From: an uncultured virus (IMG/VR IMGVR_UViG_3300021599_002354)
Lineage: Duplodnaviria; Heunggongvirae; Uroviricota; Caudoviricetes
Length of the DNA: 64,000 nucleotides
IMG/VR virus record: IMGVR_UViG_3300021599_002354
Direction: 5' to 3' (one strand)
The notes below the pieces were generated by a model. The model saw only the letters and a list, made by a program, of their open reading frames with translations, searched no databases and was not told the DNA's origin. A program made the position numbers and the translations under genes. Positions 1-52,132 of the stretch are shown here, in pieces; position 1 is the stretch's first letter; every line of letters starts with the position of its first letter.

Positions 1-660
1 CTGAGGAACCAGATGATCCTGAAGATCCAGATGTTCCACTTGTACCAGATGTACCTCTTGTACCTGAAGAACCGGAAGATCCTGATGAACCCGATGTTCC
101 TGAAGAACCCGATGTTCCTGAAGAACCATTAGATCCAGATGATCCACTACTACCACTTGTACCTGAAGATCCACTTGAACCCGAAGAACCGTTAGACCCT
201 GAAGTACCAGATGATCCCGAAGATCCAGATGTTCCTGAAGATCCTGAGGATCCACTCGATCCACTCGATCCACTTGAACCTGATGATCCTGATGTACCAC
301 TACTTCCTGAACTTCCTGATGTACCTGAAGATCCAGAACTTCCACTTGTACCAGAAGAACCTGACGATCCTGATGTACCGCTACTTCCTGATGAACCGGA
401 ACTTCCACTTGTGCCTGAGGTTCCTGATGTACCTCTTGTTCCAGATGAACCAGATGATCCTGAAGAACCTGAAGAACCAGATGTTCCGCTTGAACCTGAT
501 GATCCAGAAGTTCCTGAACTACCTGATGATCCACTTGTACCAGAAGAACCCGAACTACCACTTGAACCTGAGGAACCAGATGATCCTGAAGATCCAGATG
601 TTCCACTTGTACCAGATGTACCTCTTGTACCTGAAGAACCGGAAGATCCTGATGAACCTC
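1..660 (-). repeat. Coding Gly-Ser-Ser/Gly-Thr-Ser 9-bp periodic tract; includes an exact 91-bp direct repeat (1..91 = 568..658)
   Basis: Direct reading of the sequence. Confidence 0.9.
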
Positions 661-2449
661 CTGTATATCTATATATGTTGTTATTTGTTGTGTTAAAATA
701 TATTTGACCAACTACTGTTCCCGTTGGGTCTGATGGTGAAGTTGGTACCTGTAATGCTCCCGTTATGAATACTGAACCCGTAAATTTATGATAATCATCT
801 AACGTGTTACCAAAATCATGTGAACCACTTGCGTATGATTCTGTAACATATAACACCGAAGATGATAGAATTAATTGTTGTGCAGTGATATTACCTTGAA
901 CTGTTAAGTTATTATCAATGAATGTGTGTCCATGAAGTTGTACTTTATGTGTTGCTGCGGTTGCACCTGTTAAATTACCAAGTCCATTTCCAAGACCTGG
1001 CCCAATTAAAACGTTACCATAAGTTGGTTCAGAAATAAATACATAATCAGTATTTGAATTAGAAGCGTTTGAAGGGTTACCGATTTCAAACATTGAACTA
1101 TTTTGATACGGTAATAATCTAAAAATTGGATATAATGATGATTTATCGTAACTTAATTCAAATTGCTTAGTACCCCCATTTAGGAAATACAAAGCATTAA
1201 TATTTGCCGAAGAATCCAAACCAACGAGTTGGTCATTCGCAGCACCACTTACATATAATGAATATGAACCTTGAGGTGCTACATTTATTCCAAGTTGTGA
1301 TCCGTTAAATTGTAAATTTGATTCACCGTTAATTAGTCCGCTTGTTCCTGTTGCGGTTAAAACGTAATTATCTACATTATTGTTAATTGTTGCTGCCCCC
1401 GATGTTCCTGAACTTCCCGCACTTCCACTACTACCACTTGTACCCGAAGAACCCGAACTACCCGATGTTCCACTTGAACCAGATGATCCTGAAGAACCAC
1501 TACTACCACTTGAACCTGAACTACCTGATGTTCCGCTTGAACCAGACGATCCACTTGTTCCTGAAGAACCAGATGATCCAGAGGTTCCTGAAGATCCCGA
1601 TGTGCCAGATGTACCTGAAGTACCTCTTGTACCAGAAGATCCTGAAGAACCCGAACTACCTGATGATCCAGAAGTACCTGATGATCCAGAAGTACCTGAA
1701 CTACCTGACGTTCCACTTGTACCTGATGTACCGGAACTTCCGCTTGTACCTGATGATCCACTTGATCCTGATGTACCTGATGTACCGGAACTTCCGCTTG
1801 TACCAGAAGAACCAGAAGAACCTGAGGAACCAGAACTTCCACTTGTACCCGAAGAACCTGAGGAACCGGATGTTCCACTTGTTCCTGAAGAACCTGAAGA
1901 ACCTGAAGAACCTGAGGAACCTGATGTTCCAGATGACCCACTACTACCTGATGTTCCACTTGTTCCTGAAGAACCGGAACTACCAGAACTACCAGAAGAA
2001 CCTGAGGAACCAGAACTTCCACTTGTACCCGATGTGCCAGAAGTTCCTGAAGAACCGGCAGTACCCGAAGAACCCGCACCACTTACCCAAGCAGTACCAT
2101 TATATCTATATAAATTATTATCTGATGTATTATAGAATAATTGACCCGCCGTACCTGTAGCAGGATTTACATTTCCTGTTGGTAATTTAAATGATCCTGT
2201 TACTCTAAGACTACCTGTAAAATCATGATAGTCATCCATGGTATCACCAAAAACATGAGAACCACTCGCAAAAGATTCTGTCGCATAAAAGACAGATGAA
2301 CTAACAATATATTGTTGTGCGGTAATTGATCCAGTAATAACTAAATTACCGGCAATGTTTTGATTACCTTTAACTGATAAATCACCACCGACTTCAGCCG
2401 AACTTGATACGGAAAGAGATCCGGTTATTTGTGCGTCAAATATTCTCAT
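1..2449 (-). CDS. Gly-X-Ser triplet-repeat fibre/virion structural protein (3' end runs off the window; missing from the ORF track)
   Basis: ATG at 2449 (MRIFDAQITGSLSVSSSAEVGGDL...) stays open to base 2. Two long (GSS/GTS)n tracts are separated by a globular region. Confidence 0.85.
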   Translation of the reverse strand, partial: MRIFDAQITGSLSVSSSAEVGGDLSVKGNQNIAGNLVITGSITAQQYIVSSSVFYATESFASGSHVFGDTMDDYHDFTGSLRVTGSFKLPTGNVNPATGTAGQLFYNTSDNNLYRYNGTAWVSGAGSSGTAGSSGTSGTSGTSGSSGSSGSSGSSGSSGSSGTSGTSGSSGSSGTSGSSGSSGSSGSSGTSGTSGSSGSSGTSGSSGSSGSSGSSGTSGSSGTSGTSGSSGSSGTSGSSGTSGTSGTSGSSGTSGSSGTSGSSGSSGSSGSSGTRGTSGTSGTSGSSGTSGSSGSSGTSGSSGSSGTSGSSGSSGSSGSSGSSGSSGTSGSSGSSGTSGSSGSAGSSGTSGAATINNNVDNYVLTATGTSGLINGESNLQFNGSQLGINVAPQGSYSLYVSGAANDQLVGLDSSANINALYFLNGGTKQFELSYDKSSLYPIFRLLPYQNSSMFEIGNPSNASNSNTDYVFISEPTYGNVLIGPGLGNGLGNLTGATAATHKVQLHGHTFIDNNLTVQGNITAQQLILSSSVLYVTESYASGSHDFGNTLDDYHKFTGSVFITGALQVPTSPSDPTGTVVGQIYFNTTNNNIYRYTGGSSGSSGSSGTRGTSGTSGTSGSSGSSGSSGSSGSSGSSGTSGSSGSSGTSGSSGSSGTSGSSGSSGSSGSSGTRGTSGTSGTSGSSGSSGSSGTSGSSGSSGTSGSSGSSGTSGSSGSSGTSGSSGSSGSSGSSGSSGSSGTSGSSGSSGTSGSNGSSGSSGSSGTSGSSGSSGSNGSSGTSGSSGTSGSSGSSGSSGTRGTSGTSGTSGSSGSSGSS
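1400..2080 (-). repeat. Coding Gly-X-Ser tract
   Basis: 9-bp periodicity; translates as GSSGTSGSS... Confidence 0.9.
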
Positions 2450-8508: not shown

Positions 8509-9096
8509 TTAAATTATCCTTGTGTTTTTTACCGTTTGTCCACCTCTATATTTCTTACCAATTGACAAATCTTCGATAAATTTTGTCTCATTAATACCCA
8601 CATAAGAACATATTCTATAAAGGTCAGTTTTTTCATAAAAAATTTCTTCATATGTTATTTGTGTTTGTCTTAAGTTTCTTAAATATTCTCTACCTTCCTT
8701 TATTTTTTCAAAAAAATCTTCAATTAAATTCATGTGTTGATTAATCCAATTTTGATCTATTTGATAATTTGTATGCCATTTGTAATTTGTTTTTGCCCAT
8801 ATGGTACTTGTTGCTTGTTCAAATATATTTTCTCTTGTTAATATGAATATATTATTCCAATTAAGTGAAAAAAGATGAAAAATATTTTGTATTTTTCTAT
8901 TATGACTCCATTCACCAGTGTTTTGTTCAAAAATCAATTTCACAACTATATTATCTGAATTAAATATCTTTTCAATATCATCTTCTTTATTGTGTAAAAA
9001 TGGTTCATTTATCCAATCAATTTCTAATTCTTTACTTAACCAATTAGAAAAAACAGTACCACCCGTTCTTGGTTGTGCAATTATTAAAATTCTCAT
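8509..9096 (-). CDS. Sulfotransferase (Stf0-like)
   Basis: 5'-PSB loop AQPRTGGT, NEPF, LTREN..Q..S, ITYEE. Confidence 0.7.
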   Translation of the reverse strand: MRILIIAQPRTGGTVFSNWLSKELEIDWINEPFLHNKEDDIEKIFNSDNIVVKLIFEQNTGEWSHNRKIQNIFHLFSLNWNNIFILTRENIFEQATSTIWAKTNYKWHTNYQIDQNWINQHMNLIEDFFEKIKEGREYLRNLRQTQITYEEIFYEKTDLYRICSYVGINETKFIEDLSIGKKYRGGQTVKNTRII

Positions 9097-9105
9097 ATAA
9101 TTAAA

Positions 9106-9672
9106 CTAAATTAAAGTTTTCTTATAATTAGTATCTGGCAATAAACGAAACCAATTCACTAATGAGTATCTTGTATTTTCAGTAACTTCAGTGACACGAT
9201 GTGTCATGTTCGATAGAAATACGAACAAATTACCTTTACCGTTTTCAAACTTGAAAATTTCCCCATTTTCATCTTTTATTAATTCCAAATCTCCTCCTTT
9301 GTATTCATCATTCAATTGAATAACAATTGAACAATATCTTTCAGATGCAAACCCCACAGTGCTTGAGTCCGTATGCCAATTGTAAAATTCACCAACATCA
9401 TATTTAGTAAACTGATATAATTGATTATCAAAATTTATTTTATAACCTTTTATTTTTATTTCTTTTGATATTTCTTTTAATAATTTTTCTTTTATATATG
9501 GAAAAACGTCATCATAATTTGTAAACGAGATTGAAGATTTTCTTGATTTTTCATTATACTCATTCGCACCAACTAAACCATTTCTAAATTTAAGATTTTG
9601 CAACGAATAATTTACAATTTCATTGCATTGTTCTTCTGTCAAAAATTTTTGTATTGTAAAATATTGTATCAT
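9106..9672 (-). CDS. 2OG-Fe(II) oxygenase (prolyl 4-hydroxylase-like)
   Basis: WHTD, YKGGDL, HRVTEV..RYSLVNW; likely start MIQYF at 9672. Confidence 0.85.
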   Translation of the reverse strand: MIQYFTIQKFLTEEQCNEIVNYSLQNLKFRNGLVGANEYNEKSRKSSISFTNYDDVFPYIKEKLLKEISKEIKIKGYKINFDNQLYQFTKYDVGEFYNWHTDSSTVGFASERYCSIVIQLNDEYKGGDLELIKDENGEIFKFENGKGNLFVFLSNMTHRVTEVTENTRYSLVNWFRLLPDTNYKKTLI

Positions 9673-9673
9673 T

Positions 9674-10282
9674 TTAAATAAATTTTGTATTTGTTTTTTT
9701 TTCAATTAAATTAAAATTTATTAAACACTTGTCAATTTTTGTAGATGGTACGCCGACATGTGGTGTCAATCCATCGAAAACCACTAACCTGTTTCCAACG
9801 CAATCAATTTTATGTTTTATTGTTTTCTTATCATTCTCATATAAAATTGTATATCCATCATTTGTATTGACATAATAAATTAATGTTATGTGTTCAGATA
9901 AATTATCTACATGTATACCCTCATCAATATCTTTTAAATCTAATGTCTGCGGTTTGTTTAAATTTATTTTAATTCTTATTGTATTTCTTACTTTAATTCC
10001 TAATTTGTTAATCGCATATTCTCTAATTTGTTCAATTAATCTTTGTGTTTCTTTAGAAACCGGCGTTTCGTTTCTGTTTAACACGATAACAAATCCATCG
10101 TTTTTTTTTGTTTCTACTTTTGAAGGATTCGTGAGAATAAGAGGATTTTCTTTTAAATTTTGGTAATTTATATTATCATGATAATACCAAGTTAATTTAT
10201 TTTGATTTGTTATAAAATAATCCTTTAATTTATCTAATTCTAAATCATCTAAAAAATTATCAATAATTATCACATCTTTCAT
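9674..10282 (-). CDS. 2OG-Fe(II) oxygenase-like protein
   Basis: IIDNFL, IHVD, TLIYYVN..DGYT, NRLVVFDG..PH. Confidence 0.75.
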   Translation of the reverse strand: MKDVIIIDNFLDDLELDKLKDYFITNQNKLTWYYHDNINYQNLKENPLILTNPSKVETKKNDGFVIVLNRNETPVSKETQRLIEQIREYAINKLGIKVRNTIRIKINLNKPQTLDLKDIDEGIHVDNLSEHITLIYYVNTNDGYTILYENDKKTIKHKIDCVGNRLVVFDGLTPHVGVPSTKIDKCLINFNLIEKKTNTKFI

Positions 10283-10718
10283 AATACCCTATATTTTTTA
10301 TTATATCAATTATTGTCAAATTCCAGTTTTCGACTTCCACTTTTATTTTTTTGTGTTCACATAACATATAATTTGTTACCATATTATAAAACCAATATGC
10401 GGAATATTTCGGTTTTTTTATTTTTTTTGTTACATATAAATTATATCCAAAACAAGTATTATCATCAATTATCTTAAAGAAAACATAACCAATTGCATTT
10501 TCCTTATAATATAAAATGAAAAGAGTTTCATTATTTTGTATTCTATCTTTTACATCTTCGATAGTAAACATCCCTTTCCATTCATATTCTTGATTAAAAA
10601 AATTTATCAAAGTTTTCAATTCATTTGTTAAATTAGTTGTCAAGAAATTAGAAATTCTTTTAATAGTTAAATCTGTGACACACACCTTTTTGTCTATTGA
10701 TATTTCGAAATTTTTCAT
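10260..10718 (-). CDS. Hypothetical protein, possible GNAT-fold acyltransferase
   Basis: AIGYVFF...YNLYV...VENWN...IGY pattern. Confidence 0.45.
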   Translation of the reverse strand: MKNFEISIDKKVCVTDLTIKRISNFLTTNLTNELKTLINFFNQEYEWKGMFTIEDVKDRIQNNETLFILYYKENAIGYVFFKIIDDNTCFGYNLYVTKKIKKPKYSAYWFYNMVTNYMLCEHKKIKVEVENWNLTIIDIIKNIGYYERCDNY

Positions 10719-10719
10719 T

Positions 10720-12003
10720 TTAGATTAATTTTCTTTCTACAGTTTTTTTATTTTCTTTAAATCCGTCTAACAATAGATCCAAAAATGAATTTTCGTTATA
10801 TATTTTATCTATTACTTTTTTATGTACTTTATCAACCCATTTTTTACATAAATCATAATTTGTATCATAATTTTTCATGAATTCATTCACAAAATCAGTA
10901 AACCTGCTTTCAACCCCTCTATAATATTCCGCTTCTTTATAAAAGGGGTGATTTTCAACACCTGTAATCTCTCTCAAAATATCATATGGATACGTATGGG
11001 TTGAAATAAATGGTATATTTGATAAAACAAATCCATATGTTTTTTCAGACAGGTAATTTGAAGTGTATGGTGATTTTAAATAATCCCAAGTCTCACTCAA
11101 AATGTGCATTTTTGCCATCGGCAGTATTCTCATAACATATTCCAAATAATGTTCGATGTTCGAAATATAGGATATGTCGTCAAAATTATCGTCACCATAA
11201 TTATTTAAATGTATTCCTTCTAAATTTTCAATAATATGTTTATATGCCTTATAATCACTGTTATTGCAATGGTTTGATCTTGTAAGATAAATGTCTTTAT
11301 TTTTTAATTTAGATAATAATTCAATAATTCTAACCCTATTTAATTTGTGATTTCTCATAGAGAAGCACAATTTATATGGTGAGTCTAATTTCTCAAAAAT
11401 ATTTTTGAATTCATAATACCATCTTATTGATAAATGTTCATTCCATTGAAACATTGTATTTGTAAAAATAAAATTGTGGTTAGGATAATGTATGGATTCT
11501 ACATTCTTTTCTATGAAAAAATTATCGCTAAAAATAAAATGATTTTTTAATCTTTTAATTTCTGATTCTAAATCCTTAACTAACGCGTAGTTTATGTTAT
11601 CTGATTCTATAAAACTTTTTTCAGTTCTCATTAAAGAAACCAACCAACCATTTTTATTTTCTAACTTATTTGCAATCCACTTCATGATTGGAATATCGTT
11701 TATTCCGAATGGTCCTCCTGCCCTATGTGCCGTTTGATCTTTATATGAGTTTACACATTTAATTTCAGTATATTCGTGCCAATCATACAGTTGATAATTT
11801 ATTGCAAGAAAATCTATCAAATGATATCCATCCTTGTTATCATTAAATTCGGGATTAAAAATTAATTCGAATTTTTTATTTCTATATGTACAAGTTATTA
11901 TACCAATATTGTTTTTTATTTTTGAAATTCTATCAGAGGTTAACGCAAAAAATTTTAAAAATAAAGATCTCGAATAGAAATGATGTATATAAATTTTAAT
12001 CAT
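10720..12003 (-). CDS. 'SEK(T/S)'-family protein (putative GT-B glycosyltransferase-like)
   Basis: HILSET...YLSEKT...PFI motif shared with four other paralogues. Confidence 0.5.
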   Translation of the reverse strand: MIKIYIHHFYSRSLFLKFFALTSDRISKIKNNIGIITCTYRNKKFELIFNPEFNDNKDGYHLIDFLAINYQLYDWHEYTEIKCVNSYKDQTAHRAGGPFGINDIPIMKWIANKLENKNGWLVSLMRTEKSFIESDNINYALVKDLESEIKRLKNHFIFSDNFFIEKNVESIHYPNHNFIFTNTMFQWNEHLSIRWYYEFKNIFEKLDSPYKLCFSMRNHKLNRVRIIELLSKLKNKDIYLTRSNHCNNSDYKAYKHIIENLEGIHLNNYGDDNFDDISYISNIEHYLEYVMRILPMAKMHILSETWDYLKSPYTSNYLSEKTYGFVLSNIPFISTHTYPYDILREITGVENHPFYKEAEYYRGVESRFTDFVNEFMKNYDTNYDLCKKWVDKVHKKVIDKIYNENSFLDLLLDGFKENKKTVERKLI

Positions 12004-12833
12004 TAGAATATTTTTTTACTAAAAAAAGGTTTCTCAAATTTATTCCATACCCAATCTCTTAATTTTTGATCTTCAACTATGTTAATTGAGGAAAACTTTT
12101 TGTTTGTGGTGTTTTCTTTACCAATTTTAATTTTTTTGTCAAATCGATTTTCAAATAAATTTTCTAATTTATATAATTCATTTATATCATATTCAAAAGT
12201 GGGTTTATATCCACTTTTCCACGCCTCTTGTGAATCAAAAATTCTAAAATTTATGTAAGTATTATCATAGAGTTTTGTATTGATTATTTCATTTTTATTA
12301 TGATTAGTTGTATAGTTTTCTATTAATGGAAGGATTAAAAGTTTTTTGATATCTTTATCATATAAATTTGTTTTTTTGTGAGCGATCATTTGTTTTATGA
12401 TTGCGACGGCGTTATCATCAAAATATTTATAAATAAAATCATTAGTTATTTCTGATGGTTTGAAATTTAAATTATATACTTTTTTTATCCACCAATCAAA
12501 TATATAATAAAATGAACTAATAAATCTTTTACAGTAATCTCTTTTTATTGTTATAGTATCCACTTTAGAGTTTAAATAGGTGTATATTTCAGAAATTGTT
12601 AAATGCATATGAAGTTTAACTCTTTTGTTTTGATCTATCATTTTAAAAGAATTGTTAATAAAATCAGGTGGTATTAATTTATCACCTGAGACACTTTCAT
12701 GATTATCAATTGATAATTTCTGATCAAATGTCGGTTCAATTTTTAAATTAGAGTTTTCAAGTGCGTTATGTACCGAAATACTTGCACATTTTGGAATTGA
12801 AACAAATGTCAATTCATTTTCAATTAAAATCAT
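12003..12833 (-). CDS. Sulfotransferase family 2-like protein
   Basis: FVSIPKCASISV (5'-PSB), KRDYCKRFISSF (3'-PB); likely start MILIEN at 12833. Confidence 0.75.
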   Translation of the reverse strand: MILIENELTFVSIPKCASISVHNALENSNLKIEPTFDQKLSIDNHESVSGDKLIPPDFINNSFKMIDQNKRVKLHMHLTISEIYTYLNSKVDTITIKRDYCKRFISSFYYIFDWWIKKVYNLNFKPSEITNDFIYKYFDDNAVAIIKQMIAHKKTNLYDKDIKKLLILPLIENYTTNHNKNEIINTKLYDNTYINFRIFDSQEAWKSGYKPTFEYDINELYKLENLFENRFDKKIKIGKENTTNKKFSSINIVEDQKLRDWVWNKFEKPFFSKKIF

Positions 12834-12861
12834 ATTATAATATATGAAAAATAAACTGAAT

Positions 12862-13188
12862 TTACAATAAGGTTTTTTTCTTTTTTTGGGTGTGGATCCA
12901 CAACAAATCATCAACTTCTTTCCATTTTTTTTGTGGACATTCGTTAAATTCTTTTGTAAAGATTTTTTTCATAAGTGGGCAACCACAATCATTACAATAA
13001 GGTTCACCCGTAATTTCTCTTTCCGATCTAAATTCTGGACATTGAATACAAACATTCCATCTTGCTTCTGCTAAATTTTTTTGCTCAATGGTTGGATTGG
13101 ATGCTGTTACCCATGCATCAACTATAGTAACGATTTTAGATGGGTCTTTAACTAAACCTGTTAAGATTTTTTTAATACCTAAATCCAT
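12862..13188 (-). CDS. Small Cys-rich (metal-binding) protein, DUF6171-like
   Basis: RWNVCIQCP...CNDCGCPL..K....CPQKKW. Confidence 0.65.
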   Translation of the reverse strand: MDLGIKKILTGLVKDPSKIVTIVDAWVTASNPTIEQKNLAEARWNVCIQCPEFRSEREITGEPYCNDCGCPLMKKIFTKEFNECPQKKWKEVDDLLWIHTQKKKKTLL

Positions 13189-13198
13189 AAATAAAATA

Positions 13199-15133
13199 TT
13201 ACATATGTTTATTTTTCAACGCGGTAATAAATTGATTAACAATTGTTTTTAATAATATTGTGTTATCTTTTTCATCATAAATGACGGCATGTTCAAATTC
13301 AGTTCCAATTAACTCATTTCCAATAACACCCTCATACAAACCTTCTTCTCCTTTATAATTAAATCGATAAATGTTAATTCCACTCGGTGATTTACCAACA
13401 AATTGTATATTTTCTTTGTGTATTATATCTGATTTAGCATAATTACAATAACCATTAGTGTTACACGCTGCTCCCGGATTCCAATAGGAATAACATGGGA
13501 ATTGTTTGCAATTCGCTAACCAATAATAAACACAATCACCATAATTAGCACCACCTGGTGAACATCTACAACATTGTGCGCCACCATATTGTGCATAGGC
13601 ACCATTAGAGCACTCATAACAAGATAAACAGTTTGCTGTCACTGATTTACAATCAAATGTGTAGTTATGTGTTAATAAACCATATCTCAAACCACTTTCT
13701 TCAGATGTTAAAAACAAATCTAATTGTTCGAAATTCACAGCATAAACTTCAACTTCATCATATGAAAAGGTGATATTTTGTATTATTTTTTCCGACAAAC
13801 TATTTGTTTGTGAATCAAAAATAATCATTGTGTCACCAGGTTGTAATTTATTATATTCAACAAATTTCACGATTTCTTGGTTCGAGGTTTCCCCTGTTAT
13901 TATTTCTTTCTTTAAAACCATTGCATGGTCTACGTCAGAAAATTTAATTCCGTCAGTTAACTCAACATTATAGAAAAACCCTATATAATTTTGTCTTTTT
14001 ACTATGTCAACTAAATTTGTTGTTCCGATAGTAAAATTTTGCATTAAATTTTCAGATGATCCTGTCCATGTTGCTAAACTAAATTCAGCTTCATTTAATG
14101 GTAAATCGGGTATAGAAATAGATTTTACGGTGTCATTCAGATTTAGTGATGAAAGAAGTGTTAAGGAATTATCAGGTAAGAATACTTTTGTAGATCCATC
14201 TGCAGATATTTTTGGAGCCTTTTCATTATTATTATATTTGTAAAAATATTTTGGTCTTTCCCATATTGGTATTTTGTTTTCGTCATCTAAATCACAAATA
14301 TTATCTAACTCAAATGCATTAGAAAATTGTACATTCCAAAAGTTAAGAATATCCAAATTTGCACCGTAAATTAAGTCAACACTTCTGTAGTGAGTTAATC
14401 TACCTTCTAATAAATCATCCTCGTTTAAAATGTATTCTTGTATATATTCGTCCGATTCTAAATTTGTTTTTAAAATGTTGAGTTCTTCTATGGAATTTAT
14501 TTTATAAAATTTTGGATAAATATGATTGTCTGCCGGTGTTATTCTTTTTTTAACTATATAATTTGGGTGTATTCCGTTGTCACGAATAATCAACCCAATA
14601 GAATCAAAACCAAGTTCAATATCATTTACAAATGTTGCTGGTATTGAAGATGGGTTTGAATCGTACATTAATTTAAGAAATTCCCAATTATCTCTTGCGT
14701 ATGTATCATCAATCAGTGCCGTTACATCATATGCAATTCTTATTATCAATTTATTATCTGAATCTTCAATATGTGGAATTGTCATAGAATTTGCATCCAA
14801 CAATATATTATTAAAAGTAAATCCCTTTTCGTCACAATATTTTTGTAGGGGGGTTGAGAACATTCCTGTTGAAATGCTATTAGGTAATCCAGCTTCTAAA
14901 TTTTCAGATTCAGGTGTTAGATCGATTTCCCGTGCATAGCCACTTCTTAAATTTCTTTTATTGATTAAATGTATTTCATTTATGGATGTCCCTGAAATAA
15001 TGGTATCTAAAACATTCACATCAAAATAATATCTCAAATCTACCGCAGGATGTATATTTGTATTAGTTTCTATTGCTTTAAATGACCCATCGTTATCTCT
15101 AACAAAATCTGTTCCAGTTATAACTGCTCTCAT
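13199..15133 (-). CDS. Polyprotein: circularly permuted ATP-grasp + Hint domain + Cys-rich peptide + S74-type autocleaving chaperone
   Basis: GTDF...IETNTN at the N-terminus, YIVKK...YIQEYI...YRSV; SADGSTKVFLPDN...LQPGD...VYAVNFE...LLTHN; SDIIHKENI...GINIYRFNY...GVIGNEL. Confidence 0.75.
   Translation of the reverse strand: MRAVITGTDFVRDNDGSFKAIETNTNIHPAVDLRYYFDVNVLDTIISGTSINEIHLINKRNLRSGYAREIDLTPESENLEAGLPNSISTGMFSTPLQKYCDEKGFTFNNILLDANSMTIPHIEDSDNKLIIRIAYDVTALIDDTYARDNWEFLKLMYDSNPSSIPATFVNDIELGFDSIGLIIRDNGIHPNYIVKKRITPADNHIYPKFYKINSIEELNILKTNLESDEYIQEYILNEDDLLEGRLTHYRSVDLIYGANLDILNFWNVQFSNAFELDNICDLDDENKIPIWERPKYFYKYNNNEKAPKISADGSTKVFLPDNSLTLLSSLNLNDTVKSISIPDLPLNEAEFSLATWTGSSENLMQNFTIGTTNLVDIVKRQNYIGFFYNVELTDGIKFSDVDHAMVLKKEIITGETSNQEIVKFVEYNKLQPGDTMIIFDSQTNSLSEKIIQNITFSYDEVEVYAVNFEQLDLFLTSEESGLRYGLLTHNYTFDCKSVTANCLSCYECSNGAYAQYGGAQCCRCSPGGANYGDCVYYWLANCKQFPCYSYWNPGAACNTNGYCNYAKSDIIHKENIQFVGKSPSGINIYRFNYKGEEGLYEGVIGNELIGTEFEHAVIYDEKDNTILLKTIVNQFITALKNKHM
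13664..14206 (-). other. Hint (intein-like/BIL-type) domain, Ser310-Asn490
   Basis: Blocks A, B, F and G can be recognised; it ends in His-Asn followed by Tyr. Confidence 0.7.
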
Positions 15134-15154
15134 ATTTTTAATTTTCTATATCTA

Positions 15155-15163
15155 TATAAATAC
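15155..15163 (-). promoter_or_regulatory. GTATTTATA putative phage promoter motif
   Basis: 22 nt upstream of ATG 15133, the same spacing as at 2471. Confidence 0.55.
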
Positions 15164-15164
15164 T

Positions 15165-15767
15165 TCACATAAGTTTATTTTTTTTTATTGGTAGGTCAAA
15201 ATTATGTCCTAATTTTTCACCAATTTTGTTTACAATGTAATTTAAACCCTCCATATTTGGGTGTCCCAAATTATCCCAAGTAAGTCCGTTTTGAACAAAA
15301 AAGTCACGTTTCAAATCGATAAATCTATCCCAATTTATTTCTTTATATACGTTTAAAATTTGTATACTTAAATCTAATCCGAAATAATCAAAAAATAAAT
15401 AGTTAATCCCTCTTTTAACTAACCATTCTTGCATACAATATATGTAATGTAAAGTGTGCTTTGATCCCATGGGTTCAAATTTTGGGTATAGATGCGTGTG
15501 GTCATGTGTATTAACATACCATTCTTTACCGTCAAAATCCTGATGAACCCTTCTATTTGGTGAACTCCATTGTATAATTACCAAATCAGGATTTGGATTT
15601 ATATTAATTAAAGACTCTAAAGTTTTGTGAAAAATCCAATCATTCCCAACCGCTGGTCTTGAGTCGGTTGTATAACCCGAATTTAATTGTTCAGATAATA
15701 TTTTCGTGTAATTTGTGTCTAATCCATATCCAGAGGCAATTGAACATCCGTTCGTATATATGAACAT
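15165..15767 (-). CDS. SGNH/GDSL-like protein
   Basis: TNGCS, GND.I, QWS..NR, GHPN; TAATG-coupled start at 15767. Confidence 0.65.
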   Translation of the reverse strand: MFIYTNGCSIASGYGLDTNYTKILSEQLNSGYTTDSRPAVGNDWIFHKTLESLININPNPDLVIIQWSSPNRRVHQDFDGKEWYVNTHDHTHLYPKFEPMGSKHTLHYIYCMQEWLVKRGINYLFFDYFGLDLSIQILNVYKEINWDRFIDLKRDFFVQNGLTWDNLGHPNMEGLNYIVNKIGEKLGHNFDLPIKKNKLM

Positions 15768-15982
15768 TAATTTTCTTTTTTCAATCCAAATTTGATCCAT
15801 TTATACCATATTCTTTCATGAATATAATATTGAATAGGTTTATACACTAATTCTGCAATACCAAATGCCGCACCTACTTTTATAGACCCACTGACTAACC
15901 ACATAATTAAAAACCCAATTAATGTACTTACTAATCTGTACGAAATTGTTTTAGCAATGTGTCTTTTTTTCTCGACTATCAT
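15767..15982 (-). CDS. Small membrane protein, DUF2061-like
   Basis: RHIAKTISYR...YYIHERIW. Confidence 0.7.
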   Translation of the reverse strand: MIVEKKRHIAKTISYRLVSTLIGFLIMWLVSGSIKVGAAFGIAELVYKPIQYYIHERIWYKWIKFGLKKEN

Positions 15983-16365
15983 TTATCTACATTGTCTACT
16001 GAGTAAATTATAACATCTCCGTTAGTATCCATATAACCTTGTCTTATTTTTGTTCCACTAATACTTTCAATATCGGCGGGTGGTTGATGATAATTTACCT
16101 CATAACCAACACCCCTACCATAATTCACACTTTCAATATCAGGAATAATCGAAATTAAAATTTTATCAGAATTATCTTTAAAAAATTTTTCATTAGATAA
16201 GTCTATTAAAACTTGATGTGCGGATTTGGGGTTATTTTCATCTGCTTCAACGTCTCTAATTGCAACCCAACAATTTTTTCCTTTGTCTAATTGTTGTCTA
16301 ATTAACCATTCATGTCCAGAATGCCAATTTTGCCATCTACCAATGTACAATGCATATTTTTTCAT
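15979..16365 (-). CDS. Cytidylyltransferase-like (HxGH) nucleotidyltransferase
   Basis: GRWQNWHSGH, GRGVGY, ISGTKIR. Confidence 0.7.
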   Translation of the reverse strand: MKKYALYIGRWQNWHSGHEWLIRQQLDKGKNCWVAIRDVEADENNPKSAHQVLIDLSNEKFFKDNSDKILISIIPDIESVNYGRGVGYEVNYHQPPADIESISGTKIRQGYMDTNGDVIIYSVDNVDK

Positions 16366-16796
16366 AGATCTATATATTTTATAAGTTCAATAAATGATTC
16401 ATCCACTCTTTTATTTGTTGTGTCTAACTCTATATAGTCATCCGTTGGTGGATCATATTCTTTGACATGGAACCCTTCTCTACCCCTAATTTCATTAGTT
16501 TTAACCAAAATTTCAATCACATCATTTTCTTTCTTGAAAGTTTCTCTTTGATCCTTATATGGTGAAACCAATGATACGATGACCGTGTATCCCTTTTCAT
16601 TCATAAATCGAGCAATATCTTGAGCTCGTTCAATGTTTTTTCTTCTACCGTTTTCTGAATAATCTTTATTCTTGAAAATATCTCTCAAATCATCCCCATC
16701 AACATGAACAAGCTTTGAGTTGTTGAGATAAGTAATTAATTCTTTAGCTATGGTAGTTTTACCTGCGCCAGGTTGACCTGTAAACCAATAAATCAT
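16362..16796 (-). CDS. cysC: Adenylyl-sulfate (APS) kinase
   Basis: WFTGQPGAGKTT, DGDDLR, R..NI, SLVSPY. Confidence 0.85.
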   Translation of the reverse strand: MIYWFTGQPGAGKTTIAKELITYLNNSKLVHVDGDDLRDIFKNKDYSENGRRKNIERAQDIARFMNEKGYTVIVSLVSPYKDQRETFKKENDVIEILVKTNEIRGREGFHVKEYDPPTDDYIELDTTNKRVDESFIELIKYIDL

Positions 16797-16802
16797 ATTT
16801 AA

Positions 16803-16831
16803 AATATAATGATTTATTTTTAAAAAATCAA
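16803..16831 (-). promoter_or_regulatory. sigma70-like promoter TTGATT-N17-TATATT
   Basis: Directly upstream of cysC; matches 8480..8508. Confidence 0.45.
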
Positions 16832-16832
16832 A

Positions 16833-16949
16833 TTAATGATTATAAATAAATGGGTCTCTTTTACGTAATTCTTCTAATTTCTTTTTGAATTCCTTTTTTC
16901 TTTTACGATCTTCAAAGTACTTCTTAATCCAATTGATTAATTTTTTCAT
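16833..16949 (-). CDS. 38-aa basic peptide ending RDPFIYNH (below the ORF-track cutoff)
   Basis: MKKLINWIKKYFEDRKRKKEFKKKLEELRKRDPFIYNH*; ATGA overlap with the upstream stop. Confidence 0.65.
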   Translation of the reverse strand: MKKLINWIKKYFEDRKRKKEFKKKLEELRKRDPFIYNH

Positions 16950-17659
16950 AAAATATAATTTTTTAATTTCTTATTTATTAAATAGTTATAAAACAATTCA
17001 TGCATTTCCTTACTCCAATGCATGTCTTTTGACACCCCGTCTGTCCAATTAGTTTTTATATAAACATCATTCAAAGTTTCCCATATACCAATATTATCTA
17101 CCAAAATTTTTTTGTCTTCTATTTCGTGATCATCATAAGAAATGTTGTCCCATGAAAATAAATAACTGTAACATGGGGTTATCATTTTTAATGAATTTAT
17201 AACATCTAAATGATTTGTTATTGCAGATGGTGTAGAATTCAATACTTGATAAATCTCTATCAGATCTGTTTTTAATTTGAATCCAGAATGGTTGAAACTA
17301 TCAACCATAGTATCACCCTCTTTATATGAGTTAGCACCAATAAACTTATTTAGGAATTTATATTCACCAAACTCGCAATTAATCCAATTTTCTTTTTTTA
17401 ATGGTAATCTTGTTCTATAAAAAGTTGGGATACACACTATAAGGATATCATCTATAGATAATTTAGGTAAATGAATAATCCATTTATCTATTATTGTTTG
17501 AATATCTCTACTTGATTGTCCGTCTACAATAATTTCATAATTTTTTATATTATCAAATATTAATTTTACCCAAGTTTCTTTGACGTATCCGTGATCAAGA
17601 TTCCAATTCTCATTTGGGAATTCAACAAAACTATCTCCAATAATTAATATTTTTTTCAT
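16946..17659 (-). CDS. SGNH/GDSL-like protein
   Basis: IIGDSF ... DMHW. Confidence 0.65.
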   Translation of the reverse strand: MKKILIIGDSFVEFPNENWNLDHGYVKETWVKLIFDNIKNYEIIVDGQSSRDIQTIIDKWIIHLPKLSIDDILIVCIPTFYRTRLPLKKENWINCEFGEYKFLNKFIGANSYKEGDTMVDSFNHSGFKLKTDLIEIYQVLNSTPSAITNHLDVINSLKMITPCYSYLFSWDNISYDDHEIEDKKILVDNIGIWETLNDVYIKTNWTDGVSKDMHWSKEMHELFYNYLINKKLKNYIL

Positions 17660-35159: not shown

Positions 35160-35581
35160 CCTTCCTGATTCTTTGGCCAACTTACTTCCCAATCTTTAAA
35201 GTCAGCCGCAATGCAATCAATTTTGTAATCTTTTCTACCTCCAAAAACTTCTTGTATTTTGTTTTTTGCGGTGTTTCTAATACCGTTCAATCCATGAGTC
35301 AACGCTAACATACTCGGTCCTTCTTTACCACTTCTAACGTTAGATTCGTTATACCAAATATGTGCGTTCATTTGTGCACAAACTATAATTGCTCTAACCA
35401 TCTCAGCGGTAATTGGTTGATCGGTTTCATTTATAATTAATTGTATATCATGTACAATGTCAGATATTTCTTCCGCATATGCCACCTTATTTTCAGGTAT
35501 TTTACATTCTTTCAATTGTACGATTGATAATCTATCTATTAATTCTGAAATTGTTGGTAAAAATTTTCTTTCTTTCATCAT
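35156..35581 (-). CDS. Hypothetical protein (DUF6165-like)
   Basis: ELIDRLSIVQLK...N..IW..E...N..R..AKN.I. Confidence 0.6.
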   Translation of the reverse strand: MMKERKFLPTISELIDRLSIVQLKECKIPENKVAYAEEISDIVHDIQLIINETDQPITAEMVRAIIVCAQMNAHIWYNESNVRSGKEGPSMLALTHGLNGIRNTAKNKIQEVFGGRKDYKIDCIAADFKDWEVSWPKNQEG

Positions 35582-36855
35582 ATTATTTTTTTTAAATTTA
35601 TATATTTTCTAATTTCTAAATAAGCATCTGGTGGTCTTTCTAATTTACTTATTAATGTATCATAATTGTATTCAATTATTTCACTCATTTCTTTAAACCA
35701 AGAAAGTTTATCTTTAATTTGATTAACTTTTTTTATTGATTCAATTATCATATTTAATCTATCATGTGTCGGTAAAGAATCGTATGATTCATCGATAAAA
35801 CCATCGAATGTTTTATAACCAATTTGTCTCATCATTTTCATACTATCTTTATTACCCATAATCATAAAAGGATGTCTACACGCAATAACTTTAAATGTTT
35901 TTTCACTTAAAAACATAGTTTTGTCTGAATCCCCACAATGAGCTTCACTAATCACAGTCATAAATGTGTCTAAACAAATTTGATCGTTAAATCTATTTAT
36001 GTAAAAATTATCATCTAATTCGTCATTTCTTTTTCCATGAACTAAAAGTGGTAATTCTTTTGAAATTTCTTCTAACTCACCATCTAAAAAATTTTTATTT
36101 TCAAAATTGTACCAATGTATGGGAAATTCATTCATACTAACTAACCCATCTTTTATCAGTCCTGAATGATATAAGTAATAATAGAACCAAACACGATGTG
36201 GTCTTATTCTTTTATTTAGACACGCAAATGTCTTGATTTTATCAATGTTATTTTTTTTATAAATTAAATGATCATCTAAAGTTGGTAATGGATTTGGACT
36301 ATTTTCCTTGTTTCTTCCCCATGCGGTCATTCCCATATCAAGTTCAAAATGTGGATACGGTATAACCTTCATTCTACTTTCAATTTTATTATTGTCTGCC
36401 CAATCTTTATACGTCACATCAGCAATCATATTACCGGTAACATAAATTATTCTACTTGGACAAACATCAAATTCTTTACATTGTTGATGAAAATAATCCC
36501 ATAACCAATTTGTTTGATAACCTTCTAAACTTTGATCCAATAAAAGATATGCATCATTATTTCTTAAATCTGTTATATATTTTTCATTTAGATGAGAGAA
36601 AAAACTTTTAACTCTTGGGTCATAACCTGTCCAATCATCGGGGCTATGGTTCACACCTGATGCAATTATATAGTCTTTAATATCATCATTAACATCAAAA
36701 TAATTTAATTCATCGTAAATATTTTTAGAACTATAATAAATGTATGTTGGTGAGATAATCGGCGCGGTTCCAAATCTACCTATACCCGATTTATTTATAT
36801 CGGTACAATTTATAAAATTCCTTAAATTAAATTTATCTTCAAATATTAAATTCAT
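35578..36855 (-). CDS. 'SEK(T/S)'-family putative glycosyltransferase-like protein
   Basis: FACLNKR.RPHR, VISEA, FLSEKTFK.I...HPF. Confidence 0.55.
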   Translation of the reverse strand: MNLIFEDKFNLRNFINCTDINKSGIGRFGTAPIISPTYIYYSSKNIYDELNYFDVNDDIKDYIIASGVNHSPDDWTGYDPRVKSFFSHLNEKYITDLRNNDAYLLLDQSLEGYQTNWLWDYFHQQCKEFDVCPSRIIYVTGNMIADVTYKDWADNNKIESRMKVIPYPHFELDMGMTAWGRNKENSPNPLPTLDDHLIYKKNNIDKIKTFACLNKRIRPHRVWFYYYLYHSGLIKDGLVSMNEFPIHWYNFENKNFLDGELEEISKELPLLVHGKRNDELDDNFYINRFNDQICLDTFMTVISEAHCGDSDKTMFLSEKTFKVIACRHPFMIMGNKDSMKMMRQIGYKTFDGFIDESYDSLPTHDRLNMIIESIKKVNQIKDKLSWFKEMSEIIEYNYDTLISKLERPPDAYLEIRKYINLKKII

Positions 36856-38303
36856 TAGTTTTTATATTTGTCTTTGTCTGAAACATATACACCTGGTTCA
36901 AAATGTGTTATTTTTCCATCAGTCATAGATACATCCTGTATAGATTTGTCAATTTCTATAGAGTTAAACCAATCAGCTAATTCAGGAAATGTATCTACAA
37001 AACTTTTATTTCTTCTAACATCATACTGCATGTAAAAACTTTTGAAATCATGATATTGAAGTGTATCGTCTGTTTCAGTGGTTATATGTCCTCTATTTAC
37101 AACTTCTATGTAGTCAATCAATCTTTGAATTTGAGCACCTTCATGCATGTTTATTAATGGATTCTTTTTATGTTTTCTCCACCACATAGATAACTTACCA
37201 TGTAATTCGTATTTAATATCGTTTGGTAATGCAAGTGGTGACATAAATGCCGGCCATCTTAATATATTGAAATCCACTATAAGTTTATGTGCTCCGTATT
37301 TTTGTTTTATTTTCAACATGTCGTCAAGAAATTCAGTAATACTAAACAAACACAAACTATTAATTGTCATCATTATCACTAATTGTCTATAGTTTGCCTT
37401 TTCCATAAAAGTTACTATATTATTTCTCCATATCTCATAATTCAATCCATCTCTTATATACTCGGCGTGTGCACCAAATGATTCGTTACTTGTGTATAAA
37501 TCAAATTCTTTTACTTGAACCTCGTGGGTCATGTCAATTAATCTTTGTAACGTATCAGGTTTTAAACCAAGATTTGAGTTTACTGCAAATCTTAAATTTG
37601 GTGATGGGTATTGTTTCATTAATTCAACAAATTGCCAAAAGTTTCTACTCTGAGATGGTTCACCACCTGTAACTCTTATCTCCATTAATTTTTGTGATAG
37701 TTCTGGCCACCATTCTAAAAACGCTTTTACATATGGGTTATTCTCATTGTATTTTCCATATATCTCAGACCATGATCCGTCTGCATAATATGCACCTGCG
37801 CTCGAAGTTTTGAATTTTTGATATGGACCATTGTCTCTTATGTCTTTACCCCAAGTAGTTGAGTATCCTGAATTACAATAGCTACAAGCAAAATTACATG
37901 TCCTATCAAAACTAACTTCAATAGTTCTTGGTGTAATATCGGCATCCCATGGTAACTCTTTTAACTCTGCGATTTCTTCGGGTTTATATATTTGACTCTT
38001 GTATACACGATCAGATATGTTATTTCTTCCAATATCTTCTATTCTCCAACAATATGAACATTCGGCGGGTCTTGTTCCCTCCAACATCATCTTTCTAATT
38101 TCTTTTTTAAATTTAGTATTGTGAAGTGCAGATGGATTTGTTTTAATTTCCTCCAAATCTATAGGGTGTGGTAATGGTAAATGACATGAGTTAGTGAATC
38201 CGTGTCCTAAATGTAAACTTACGTTCAACCATTTAGCAGCACAAAAACTACAACTAACTTTATTTAAATGCTCATCTCTCCAATTTGCTAATTGTTCTGA
38301 CAT
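36855..38303 (-). CDS. Radical SAM enzyme with N-terminal Cys-rich (SPASM/twitch-like) region
   Basis: CNFACSYC, VTGGEP; CSFCAAKW, SCH, ECSYCW. Confidence 0.88.
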   Translation of the reverse strand: MSEQLANWRDEHLNKVSCSFCAAKWLNVSLHLGHGFTNSCHLPLPHPIDLEEIKTNPSALHNTKFKKEIRKMMLEGTRPAECSYCWRIEDIGRNNISDRVYKSQIYKPEEIAELKELPWDADITPRTIEVSFDRTCNFACSYCNSGYSTTWGKDIRDNGPYQKFKTSSAGAYYADGSWSEIYGKYNENNPYVKAFLEWWPELSQKLMEIRVTGGEPSQSRNFWQFVELMKQYPSPNLRFAVNSNLGLKPDTLQRLIDMTHEVQVKEFDLYTSNESFGAHAEYIRDGLNYEIWRNNIVTFMEKANYRQLVIMMTINSLCLFSITEFLDDMLKIKQKYGAHKLIVDFNILRWPAFMSPLALPNDIKYELHGKLSMWWRKHKKNPLINMHEGAQIQRLIDYIEVVNRGHITTETDDTLQYHDFKSFYMQYDVRRNKSFVDTFPELADWFNSIEIDKSIQDVSMTDGKITHFEPGVYVSDKDKYKN

Positions 38304-38306
38304 ATT

Positions 38307-39050
38307 TTAAAATTTTACGTATTGTAATGGTACTTTTTCTAAAAAATTATTGTTTTTTGATTCGTCATATATTATATCTAAATTATTAATAGTTTCAAAA
38401 TCATATAAACAAATAATATCTTCATAATAATATTTGTCAACTAATAAACTTGATTTAGATTCATATAAATCTTTTGCGTCATTAATATCTGAGGTTTTTT
38501 CTATTATGGAAAAATATTTTAAATCCATTTCACCATAATATCTTTGATGTATAACACTACAATCCGGACTGGAACATCCAAAATATAGACCATCAATTTT
38601 ATAATCCTCAATTAATTGTCCTTCAAAAATATAATCATTAATTTCTGCAAAGTTTTTATATAATATAAATTTATTATTCTTTCTTGTGTAGGATAAAACT
38701 ACACCATTTTCCACATCTTCTTTACTTACATCTTTAAAATGTACGTAATTAAAAACATCAACTCCTTCATTATTTGTCGACCAAAATTCTAAAGCAACAT
38801 CATTTGTTTCTGTATTATATGATAACCCCATGTTTTTACCTGGTTTACCAAAAACCATACAAATTTTGTCCTTTTTATAATCTTCTTTGATCATGAATTC
38901 ACATGTTACGATATATTTCTCTCTACTTTGAAAATCATGAATGTTTTGATTTTTCTCCTTATCAAATTTTGTAACATATTGATTATCGTGATGTTCGGAC
39001 AAATCCCAAACATATTTTGCCCAATATGGATGTTTATATTTTATTCTCAT
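38307..39050 (-). CDS. LamG/concanavalin A-like domain protein
   Basis: Similar to the N-terminus of the adjacent radical SAM (GKPGKNMGLSY, EFW, LYFGC). Confidence 0.55.
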   Translation of the reverse strand: MRIKYKHPYWAKYVWDLSEHHDNQYVTKFDKEKNQNIHDFQSREKYIVTCEFMIKEDYKKDKICMVFGKPGKNMGLSYNTETNDVALEFWSTNNEGVDVFNYVHFKDVSKEDVENGVVLSYTRKNNKFILYKNFAEINDYIFEGQLIEDYKIDGLYFGCSSPDCSVIHQRYYGEMDLKYFSIIEKTSDINDAKDLYESKSSLLVDKYYYEDIICLYDFETINNLDIIYDESKNNNFLEKVPLQYVKF

Positions 39051-52123: not shown

Positions 52124-52132
52124 TATAAATAC
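52124..52132 (-). promoter_or_regulatory. GTATTTATA putative phage promoter motif
   Basis: 26 nt upstream of ATG 52098. Confidence 0.55.

Follow-up and report, generated by a model that had tools for sequence, protein, structure and literature searches.

A viral protein combining a permuted ATP-grasp domain, a Hint domain, a hypervariable cysteine-rich segment and an S74 domain: a candidate self-processing peptide precursor

The gene and its modules

The DNA considered here is a stretch of 64,000 nucleotides from an uncultured tailed virus of the Caudoviricetes (IMG/VR IMGVR_UViG_3300021599_002354), called the window below, and its subject is a gene on the minus strand at 13199..15133. As it stands in the window, this open reading frame (ORF) encodes 644 amino acids (aa), the natural form in relatives having 641 aa. 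An earlier sequence-only reading had described the product as a self-processing polyprotein with a permuted ATP-grasp domain, a Hint domain, a peptide rich in cysteine and tyrosine and an S74 autocleaving chaperone, and had proposed that the peptide is cut out. The four domain calls of that interpretation are supported by the structural and comparative data presented here, and the protein has the look of a viral system, so far undescribed, that produces variable small peptides and perhaps joins them on again. The ORF and the motifs that had been described are confirmed, each being present at its position in the window translation: GTDFVRDNDGSFKAIETNTN occupies residues 7-26, YIVKK residues 192-196 and YIQEYI residues 230-235, SADGSTKV begins at Ser310, LLTHN finishes at Asn490 and SDIIHK covers residues 568-573.

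Four modules follow one another along the chain. Residues 1-305 (14219..15133, minus strand) form a circularly permuted ATP-grasp domain, predicted to be a ligase, of the type of glutathionylspermidine synthetase (GspS), YgiC and eukaryotic glutathione synthetase (GS). The Hint domain extends over residues 310-490 (13664..14206, minus strand), starting at Ser310 and ending in Thr-His-Asn490. Residues 491-567 (13433..13663, minus strand) constitute a hypervariable segment of 77 aa, with 12 Cys and, counted by eye on the translation, 11 Tyr, whose conserved ends read Y-x-x-D-C and C-N-x-x-K. Finally, residues 568-627 (13253..13432, minus strand) correspond to an S74-type intramolecular chaperone and autocleavage domain with a Ser568/Lys573 dyad, the C-terminal end of which is truncated in the window. 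The residues T488, H489, N490, D494, C495, C563, N564, K567, S568, D569 and K573, which frame the modules, are invariant in 46 aligned homologues, so these features are not due to chance. An AlphaFold model of the whole chain reached a pLDDT of 73. Neither a second copy of the gene nor orphan cassettes were found when both were looked for in the window.

The 3′ end of the gene in the window is the product of a deletion. L032, a metagenome contig almost identical to the window, holds 145 bp that are missing from the latter at 13252/13253 (L032 counterpart 2545-2690). The missing stretch, which sits between short ATTA repeats, comprises the 14 codons at the 3′ end of the S74 domain, the stop codon and codons 1-32 of a separate ORF of 49 aa (L032:2592-2741), so that an in-frame fusion results. 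Therefore residues 628-644 and the stop at 13199, which had been taken as part of the gene, are the last 17 codons and stop of this downstream ORF (13199..13252, minus strand), and the annotated 3′ end in the window is a deletion fusion. In L032 the S74 domain is complete. Contigs from four sequencing runs of four studies were aligned over 12700-13900 and none spans the junction in the form of the window: one has 144 extra letters there, and three break off here, their loose ends being undeleted sequence. Since no contig from the four runs carries it, the deletion is either an uncommon variant or an artefact of assembly, the 641-aa form (P0002) being the natural protein. At position 13214 the window has a T where all four runs have a C, a single-base departure from the population consensus.

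The permuted ATP-grasp domain

A separate model of residues 1-305, built from 95 diverse homologues, reached a pLDDT of 90 and a pTM of 0.87. The best Foldseek matches of this model were yeast and human GS, the GspS of Escherichia coli, YjfC/YgiC, 3n6x, 3k1t, trypanothione synthetase and Cp1B, with E values of 3e-6 to 3e-3 over the best ATP-grasp matches and of 3e-6 to 1e-4 for yeast and human GS, GspS and YjfC. In an independent VIA search of 48,161 chains, ranks 1-10 were all permuted ligases of the GspS/YgiC/GS type (Z 7.1-9.1, 181-231 residues aligned, from model residue 1 to about 300), in agreement with the permuted ATP-grasp that the sequence-only reading had placed in the N-terminal ~300 residues. 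For example, YgiC aligned at Z 9.1 over 202 residues (model 1..299 to chain 94..378), and GspS at Z 8.6 (model 2..303 to chain 311..610). The alignment of non-permuted ATP-grasps (TTLL, ArgX/LysX, RimK, Ddl and PurD) begins only at about model residue 50, with Z 5-6.8, as is expected of a circular permutation. The ATP-grasp ligase 7mgv, from a pathway of peptides made by the ribosome and modified after translation (RiPPs), appeared at rank 34 with Z 4.8.

Among 95 sequences of the family, E22, N24, R132, D142 and R250 never vary, and conservation reaches at least 90% at D9 and K195; the D...E-x-N, Lys and Arg residues we take to be Mg- and ATP-binding. A weak profile-sequence alignment (E 0.036) placed D9, E22 and N24 on D102, E115 and N117 of YgiC, a register that the structural alignment shares. 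The ATP-grasp domain of the window protein and of 46 homologues was matched by no model of Pfam, PF03738 (GSP_synth) included, or of NCBIfam. Because of the moderate Z-scores and this lack of a curated match, the domain is filed as a new sequence family within the permuted GspS/YgiC/eukaryotic GS fold clade, with a predicted ligase activity.

The Hint domain

Foldseek searches with the full-chain model retrieved Hedgehog, intein and bacterial intein-like (BIL) structures (E 7e-6 and weaker). On realignment in VIA, 83 chains reached Z >= 8; the best was Hedgehog 6tyy at Z 15.3, with a root-mean-square deviation (rmsd) of 2.1 and 144/146 residues aligned. A RecA mini-intein aligned almost as well, its residues 1..440 matching model residues 310..490 (Z 15.1, rmsd 2.0, 135/139 residues). 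Because this correspondence goes from the first to the last residue of the intein, Ser310 takes the place of Cys1 of the intein and Asn490 that of its terminal Asn, and the fold spans exactly the limits that had been proposed for the Hint domain.

Not all active-site positions are equally kept. Asn490 is present in all sequences of both the close (46/46) and the wide (94/94) alignment, and His489 in 46/46 and 92/94. Position 1 of the domain is Ser in 43/46 close relatives and Ser or Thr in 18/94 of the wide set, and the block-B His (His403 in the window protein) is found in 32/46 and 13/94, respectively. Thus the Hint residues kept across the family are solely those of C-terminal Asn cyclisation. 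The residue following the domain is Tyr491 in the window protein, as had been pointed out in arguing against canonical splicing, and a Cys, Ser or Thr at this +1 position is found in just 18 of the 215 homologues surveyed below. A terminal His-Asn followed by a non-nucleophilic +1 residue leads to cleavage and not to splicing. From the conservation pattern, the +1 residue and this established Hint chemistry, the domain is predicted to be one of C-terminal cleavage only and not a splicing intein.

The S74 domain

The S74 assignment depends largely on relatives. Pfam PF13884 matches 26/46 full-length homologues (best E 1.2e-6) and 12/19 isolated C-termini (best E 2e-6), and it matches neither the window protein nor the intact C-terminus of L032. 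The sole signal from the window protein alone is PHROG_6121, a "virion structural protein" family, on residues 565-608 (E 1.3e-4). S568, D569, K573 and the preceding K567 are each found in 46/46 sequences, as is the S-x4-K spacing, so that the start of an S74 domain at Ser568 and the retention of both His-Asn and SDxxxK in homologues hold throughout the alignment. When a profile of the C-termini was compared with the PDB, the best match was 3gud (E 0.063), the chaperone that the neck appendage of phage GA-1 releases, and the profile Ser fell on residue 1 of that chain.

The hypervariable cysteine-rich segment and its architectural variants

The segment between His-Asn and Ser-Asp is hypervariable between conserved flanks. 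In the 46-sequence alignment its mean pairwise identity is 0.29, compared with 0.56 for the ATP-grasp, 0.43 for the Hint and 0.51 for the S74 domain, and its length varies from 64 to 95 residues. In 9/9 close locus pairs the non-synonymous divergence (dN) of the peptide (0.14-0.70) exceeds that of the ligase (0.003-0.12), i.e., 1.7-60x, and its synonymous divergence (dS) is raised in 8/9 of these pairs, with an omega (dN/dS) of 0.24-0.64. To judge from these alignments, this looks like cassette exchange together with relaxed or diversifying selection, and not like simple positive selection.

All 189 peptides compared are distinct, and they share an even number of cysteines in 183/189 cases (114/118 peptides of the S74 class and 69/71 of the short tails described below). 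This even count argues for Cys residues that are fully paired in disulfides, the formation of which we infer, over metal sites. Of the two alternatives in the original proposal of a disulfide- or metal-rich peptide, the first is thus retained; metal binding was put aside on the even-Cys rule. A Pfam search with 30 of the cysteine-rich peptides gave no significant family, and a resemblance to hevein or knottins is a mere impression that found no support.

A survey of architectures covered 230 homologues of at least 440 aa, of which 215 have the His-Asn at the expected place. In 119 of these 215 an S74 domain follows the peptide, its Ser being preceded by Lys in 86 cases and by Pro in 24. In a second class (71/215) the chain simply stops after the peptide, the median tail having 44 aa with 8 Cys; the commonest short form in viral contigs is a six-Cys peptide of 28-31 aa ending in ...K-L/I/A. 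The other 25 mostly carry 1-3 extra canonical Hint domains that Pfam detects (Pfam Hint-family domains were found in 22 of the 36 distant homologues scanned), and in seven members of this class a peptide with at least six Cys lies exactly between the His-Asn of the first Hint and the Cys1 of a second, canonical one. A stop codon, cleavage by S74 or N-terminal cleavage of another Hint would therefore expose the peptide C-terminus, that is, one requirement would have three solutions. These three interchangeable modes of release are the strongest support for excision at both ends: together with a Hint domain that keeps the residues of Asn cyclisation, they lend comparative weight to the idea of a mini-protein cut out on both sides, the cleavage itself being a prediction.

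Distribution of the family

Sequence databases say little about the window protein. Pfam gave nothing significant (best DrmE_C at E 0.073), NCBIfam no match, and phmmer and profile searches of the PDB no significant match; tblastn against 50,697 deposited phage records found none, and the nearest virus record (G001) has no match either. A word-indexed search returned 265 proteins, mostly of about 640 aa and 40-100% identical, and an exhaustive search of 50%-identity representatives gave 416 at E <= 1e-3, 71 of them at E <= 1e-30. The best match in BFVD is an unnamed viral protein of 506 aa (E 5e-9, 452 columns), which may be a member of the family. The short class has 218 matches in viral contigs, and contigs carrying the family reach 333 kb.

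All loci found are viral but one. With one genome per species, a search of 185,579 prokaryote species had as its sole match a 3.7-kb contig in a metagenome-assembled genome of Pelagibacterales, which is weak evidence for Pelagibacterales as the host. Twenty sequencing runs from 10 studies carry 95% of the sampled words, and their labels are those of lake-water and freshwater metagenomes, with one fungus metagenome; RNA data sets are absent from the runs listed. Literature searches found no description of an ATP-grasp–Hint fusion or of a Hint paired with an S74 domain, in line with the sequence-only reading, which knew of none; coverage of subscription journals was thin, so that absence from print is unproven.

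Gene neighborhood

Next to the family gene, at 12862..13188 on the minus strand, lies a gene for a 108-aa protein with six invariant Cys (CxxC...CxxCGC...C). Adjacency and profile comparison mark it as a candidate partner of zinc-ribbon or DUF6171 type: the resemblance to zinc ribbons is weak (TFIIB 1pft, E 0.024), DUF6171 is found in 18/44 members, and the look-alike clusters of this protein in the Atlas are 100% viral. A homologue lies downstream of the family gene in 31/31 viral loci of the S74 class. In the short class, whose proteins are only about 30% identical, the zinc-ribbon gene is present within 74/80 loci, in 71 of them immediately upstream, 27-98 nt away and on the same strand. 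Since the adjacency outlives the changed gene order, it points to a functional link between the two genes. A complex prediction with the full protein and its 108-aa neighbor had a median score of 0.02 (runs 0.00, 0.43 and 0.02), which counts neither for nor against binding. In addition, a tiny ORF of 37-58 aa starts between -27 and +64 nt from the stop of the family gene in 103/107 loci. Its product, which ends in a motif common to both architecture classes, ...K-x-K-H-(L/M/S), could be a ligation partner. Other frequent neighbors are paralogues of 2-oxoglutarate (2OG)-Fe(II) oxygenases and several unknown proteins.

The motif GTATTTATA precedes the gene (15155..15163, minus strand; motif search), 22 nt before the ATG. 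The window has five copies, and in three cases a minus-strand ATG (at 2449, 15133 or 52098) follows 22-26 nt downstream of the motif. Five copies compare with 2.3 expected, and 12/100 shuffles reach this number, so the motif is not enriched. It had been noted as a motif shared with the fibre genes; it is present and is indeed shared with a collagen-like fibre gene, and as an argument this is weak. The three copies (2471-2479, 15155-15163 and 52124-52132, all on the minus strand) have a promoter-like placement before three large genes of that strand.

The window, with about 27% GC, is a low-GC phage region whose genes include glycosyltransferases, methyltransferases, a carbamoyltransferase, a gene resembling adenosine phosphosulfate (APS) kinases, 2OG-Fe(II) oxygenases and radical S-adenosylmethionine (SAM) genes. 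Two collagen-like tail-fibre genes (2..2449 and 45801..49226) have a GC of 0.43-0.44 against a background of about 0.27, and the 2OG-Fe(II) oxygenase paralogues near fibre genes (9106..9705 and others) could be prolyl-hydroxylase-like. Between 8.5 and 17.7 kb (8509..17659), 8/13 genes end, as counted by eye, in a basic residue followed by two hydrophobic ones, compared with 5/48 elsewhere in the window. Such ends are ...KKTLI, ...KKTLL, ...KKIF, ...NKLM and ...RKLI, similar ends occur in short-class peptides (...PPKL), and they may serve as a shared docking tag. Three further genes of note lie at 12003..12914, 15979..16365 and 16362..16796: one resembling APS kinases and one resembling adenylyltransferases, both adjoining the locus, and one for a 303-aa protein of unknown type, which has no family match and whose N-terminal motif may be sulfotransferase-like; the Tyr-rich peptide might be a target of tyrosine sulfation. 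Finally, a cluster of genes for large unknown proteins at 35578..43984 includes weak radical-SAM PHROG matches at 36855..38303 and 39034..41127, and in certain distant loci homologues of this cluster turn up again close to the family gene.

A predicted self-processing precursor and its alternatives

What the data above show is which folds and conserved residues the protein has, how its variability is distributed, which architectures occur among relatives and how the genes are linked. The reading that we favor, and regard as probable by a small measure, is that of a self-processing precursor in which both cuts are made, a peptide with six disulfides is released and the fused ligase acts on a freed terminus. 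At one end, the S74 domain, with its Ser568/Lys573 dyad, would sever Lys567|Ser568 and depart, as happens with the chaperones of endosialidase and tail spikes. At the other, the Hint domain, which is devoid of a conserved machinery for N-terminal cleavage or splicing, would use His489-Asn490: Asn490 would cyclise and the Asn490|Tyr491 bond would be severed. The two cuts would free a mini-protein of 77 residues with six disulfides, a free N-terminus and a C-terminal Lys, and the segment would behave as a swappable hypervariable cassette. Enzymes of the GspS/YgiC/GS clade activate the C-terminal carboxylates of peptides. The fused ATP-grasp domain may likewise activate a carboxylate on the freed peptide and join it to an amine, for which the candidates are the N-terminus of the peptide itself, a polyamine, or a lysine on the zinc-ribbon protein or on the ~46-aa protein. 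This action of the ligase on the peptide is the weakest link of the precursor model; it is suggested by the universal fusion, by the type of substrate of the nearest enzymes and by the freeing of both termini, which would otherwise have no explanation.

Several points weigh against the precursor reading. The window protein itself stays under every sequence threshold in Pfam, NCBIfam and the PDB; its ATP-grasp fold scores moderately (Z 8-9, TM 0.3-0.4), with a weak hhalign match to YgiC (E 0.036). Cleavage and ligation are both inferred. No trimeric fibre-like region is evident in the protein, unlike the usual setting of S74 domains, and disulfide-rich peptides are unexpected from a cytoplasmic phage gene with no signal peptide. 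The window copy, whose S74 domain is short of its last 14 residues, may fail to self-process if the deletion is real. In addition, some relatives have only 0-7 residues between the first and a second Hint, or a tail of 5-9 residues; the ligase–Hint module can thus persist without a cysteine-rich cargo, and these cargo-less forms keep alive the possibility of release without ligation as well as other readings.

The alternative that survives best, unlikely in our estimation but to be taken seriously, is a polymorphic effector in which the Hint domain (and the S74 domain) would free a variable extracellular peptide (a toxin, adhesin or inhibitor), the ATP-grasp domain having a separate job, for example a YgiC-like ligation of peptides to polyamines among host metabolites. 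The Hint domain does stand directly before a hypervariable C-terminal module, as in the pre-toxin HINT systems, and the cassette-like pattern of dS and dN fits such a role; furthermore, small peptides and polyamines are the substrates of the enzymes that come closest to the ligase in structure, and the ligase is kept by relatives that have no cargo. However, the ligase–Hint fusion is kept in all homologues whose architecture was examined, and the freeing of both termini, attained in three independent ways, would be unexplained if nothing acted on them. Nor was a secretion or trafficking domain, or a variable immunity-like gene, seen at these loci, where the tiny downstream ORF is conserved.

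A further alternative, to which we give somewhat less credit, is that the protein is a virion fibre or decoration protein, whose chain would stay mostly intact, the S74 domain aiding trimer folding, the cysteine-rich segment forming a receptor-binding tip and the Hint domain being a structural relic. Tail fibres and spikes typically bear S74 domains, the PHROG_6121 match carries a virion structural label, the upstream motif is common to a collagen-like fibre gene, and hypervariability is typical of receptor-binding tips. These points are countered by the 71/215 homologues that finish after the peptide without an S74 domain, to which the 80 short-class viral loci add more, and by the N-terminal 300 residues, which have an enzyme fold with invariant residues of catalytic type and no fibre shaft. 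Moreover, the terminal His-Asn of the Hint domain is kept in 92-94 of 94 sequences while its other active-site residues drift, which argues for a retained C-terminal cleavage. That the Hint domain is a functionless degenerate intein or selfish element lodged in a ligase gene is very improbable: its fold is that of a mini-intein and extra canonical Hints come and go among relatives, but the +1 nucleophile is found in so few homologues, the position-1 nucleophile is absent in most, the domain occupies the same site in every aligned homologue, no homing endonuclease insert was seen, and the downstream "extein" is hypervariable and not conserved.

The self-processing precursor thus remains our preferred reading, and it has a more specific and more doubtful form, which we rank a little below the fibre alternative. 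In this form large phages of fresh water and the sea would run a peptide factory: after the two autocatalytic cuts, the GspS-type ATP-grasp domain would close the peptide head-to-tail, or attach it, through the carboxylate freed at its C-terminus, to the virion or to a small partner protein. If this were true, viruses would have a way of their own to cystine-rich peptides that are cyclotide-like or conjugated, nature supplying a library of hundreds of different sequences, and it would be the first maturation pathway joining Hint, S74 and ATP-grasp chemistry. If the precursor model in its general form holds, phages make disulfide-rich peptides with no leader peptide, separate protease or separate precursor gene, and the biology of RiPPs as well as that of Hint domains and inteins would be widened. 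Few parts of these genomes evolve as fast as the peptide cassette, and this suggests that it takes part in conflicts between phage and host or between phages. From a practical point of view, the modules could be tools, with traceless autocatalytic cuts flanking a cargo and a built-in ligase.

Comparison with known systems

Each module has well-known counterparts. The ATP-grasp domain shares with YgiC/YjfC, GspS, trypanothione synthetase, eukaryotic GS and the fungal Cp1B the permuted fold, in which the Mg-binding D...E-x-N strand comes before the Lys and hinge elements. Enzymes of the YgiC/GspS/GS type activate a carboxylate and make an amide with an amine, and E. coli YgiC is annotated as a "peptide--spermidine ligase". 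In contrast to this group, the phage domain is unseen by Pfam and NCBIfam, is smaller (~300 aa), is fused to a Hint domain and belongs almost exclusively to viral loci. Cp1B, which acts in the E-64 pathway, is likewise reported to activate a carboxylate and form an amide with an amine (PMC12568646).

The Hint fold is shared with A-type BIL domains, with BIL2 of the BUBL locus of Tetrahymena (6y75/6tmm) and with Hedgehog (1at0/6tyy), at Z 14.4-15.3. Hedgehog and BUBL work through an N-terminal (thio)ester, whereas C-terminal cleavage alone is expected of the phage family, since it lacks a conserved N-terminal nucleophile and block-B His. As for the S74 domain, the S-D-x-x-x-K dyad motif also opens the C-terminal domain of endosialidase, of the GA-1 neck appendage (3gud) and of MYRF. 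S74 domains are normally found on trimeric fibres; the phage domain, however, has about 74 aa, follows a small cysteine-rich segment instead of a triple beta-helix or fibre, and is exchangeable among relatives with a stop codon or a Hint domain.

Two other systems resemble the arrangement as a whole. Polymorphic toxins with a pre-toxin HINT also have a conserved upstream part, a Hint domain and a hypervariable C-terminal module, but the phage protein has neither a secretion or trafficking domain nor a co-varying immunity gene, its N-terminus is an enzyme, and PT-HINT matches in Pfam are confined to the additional Hint domains that relatives carry. A ribosomal peptide is likewise paired with an ATP-grasp enzyme in those RiPP pathways whose maturases are ATP-grasps (graspetides). 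In the phage family, by contrast, the peptide is fused to the enzyme and there is no separate precursor made of leader and core, the ligase is of the GspS clade and not of the RimK/MdnC type, and processing is predicted to be autocatalytic and in cis.

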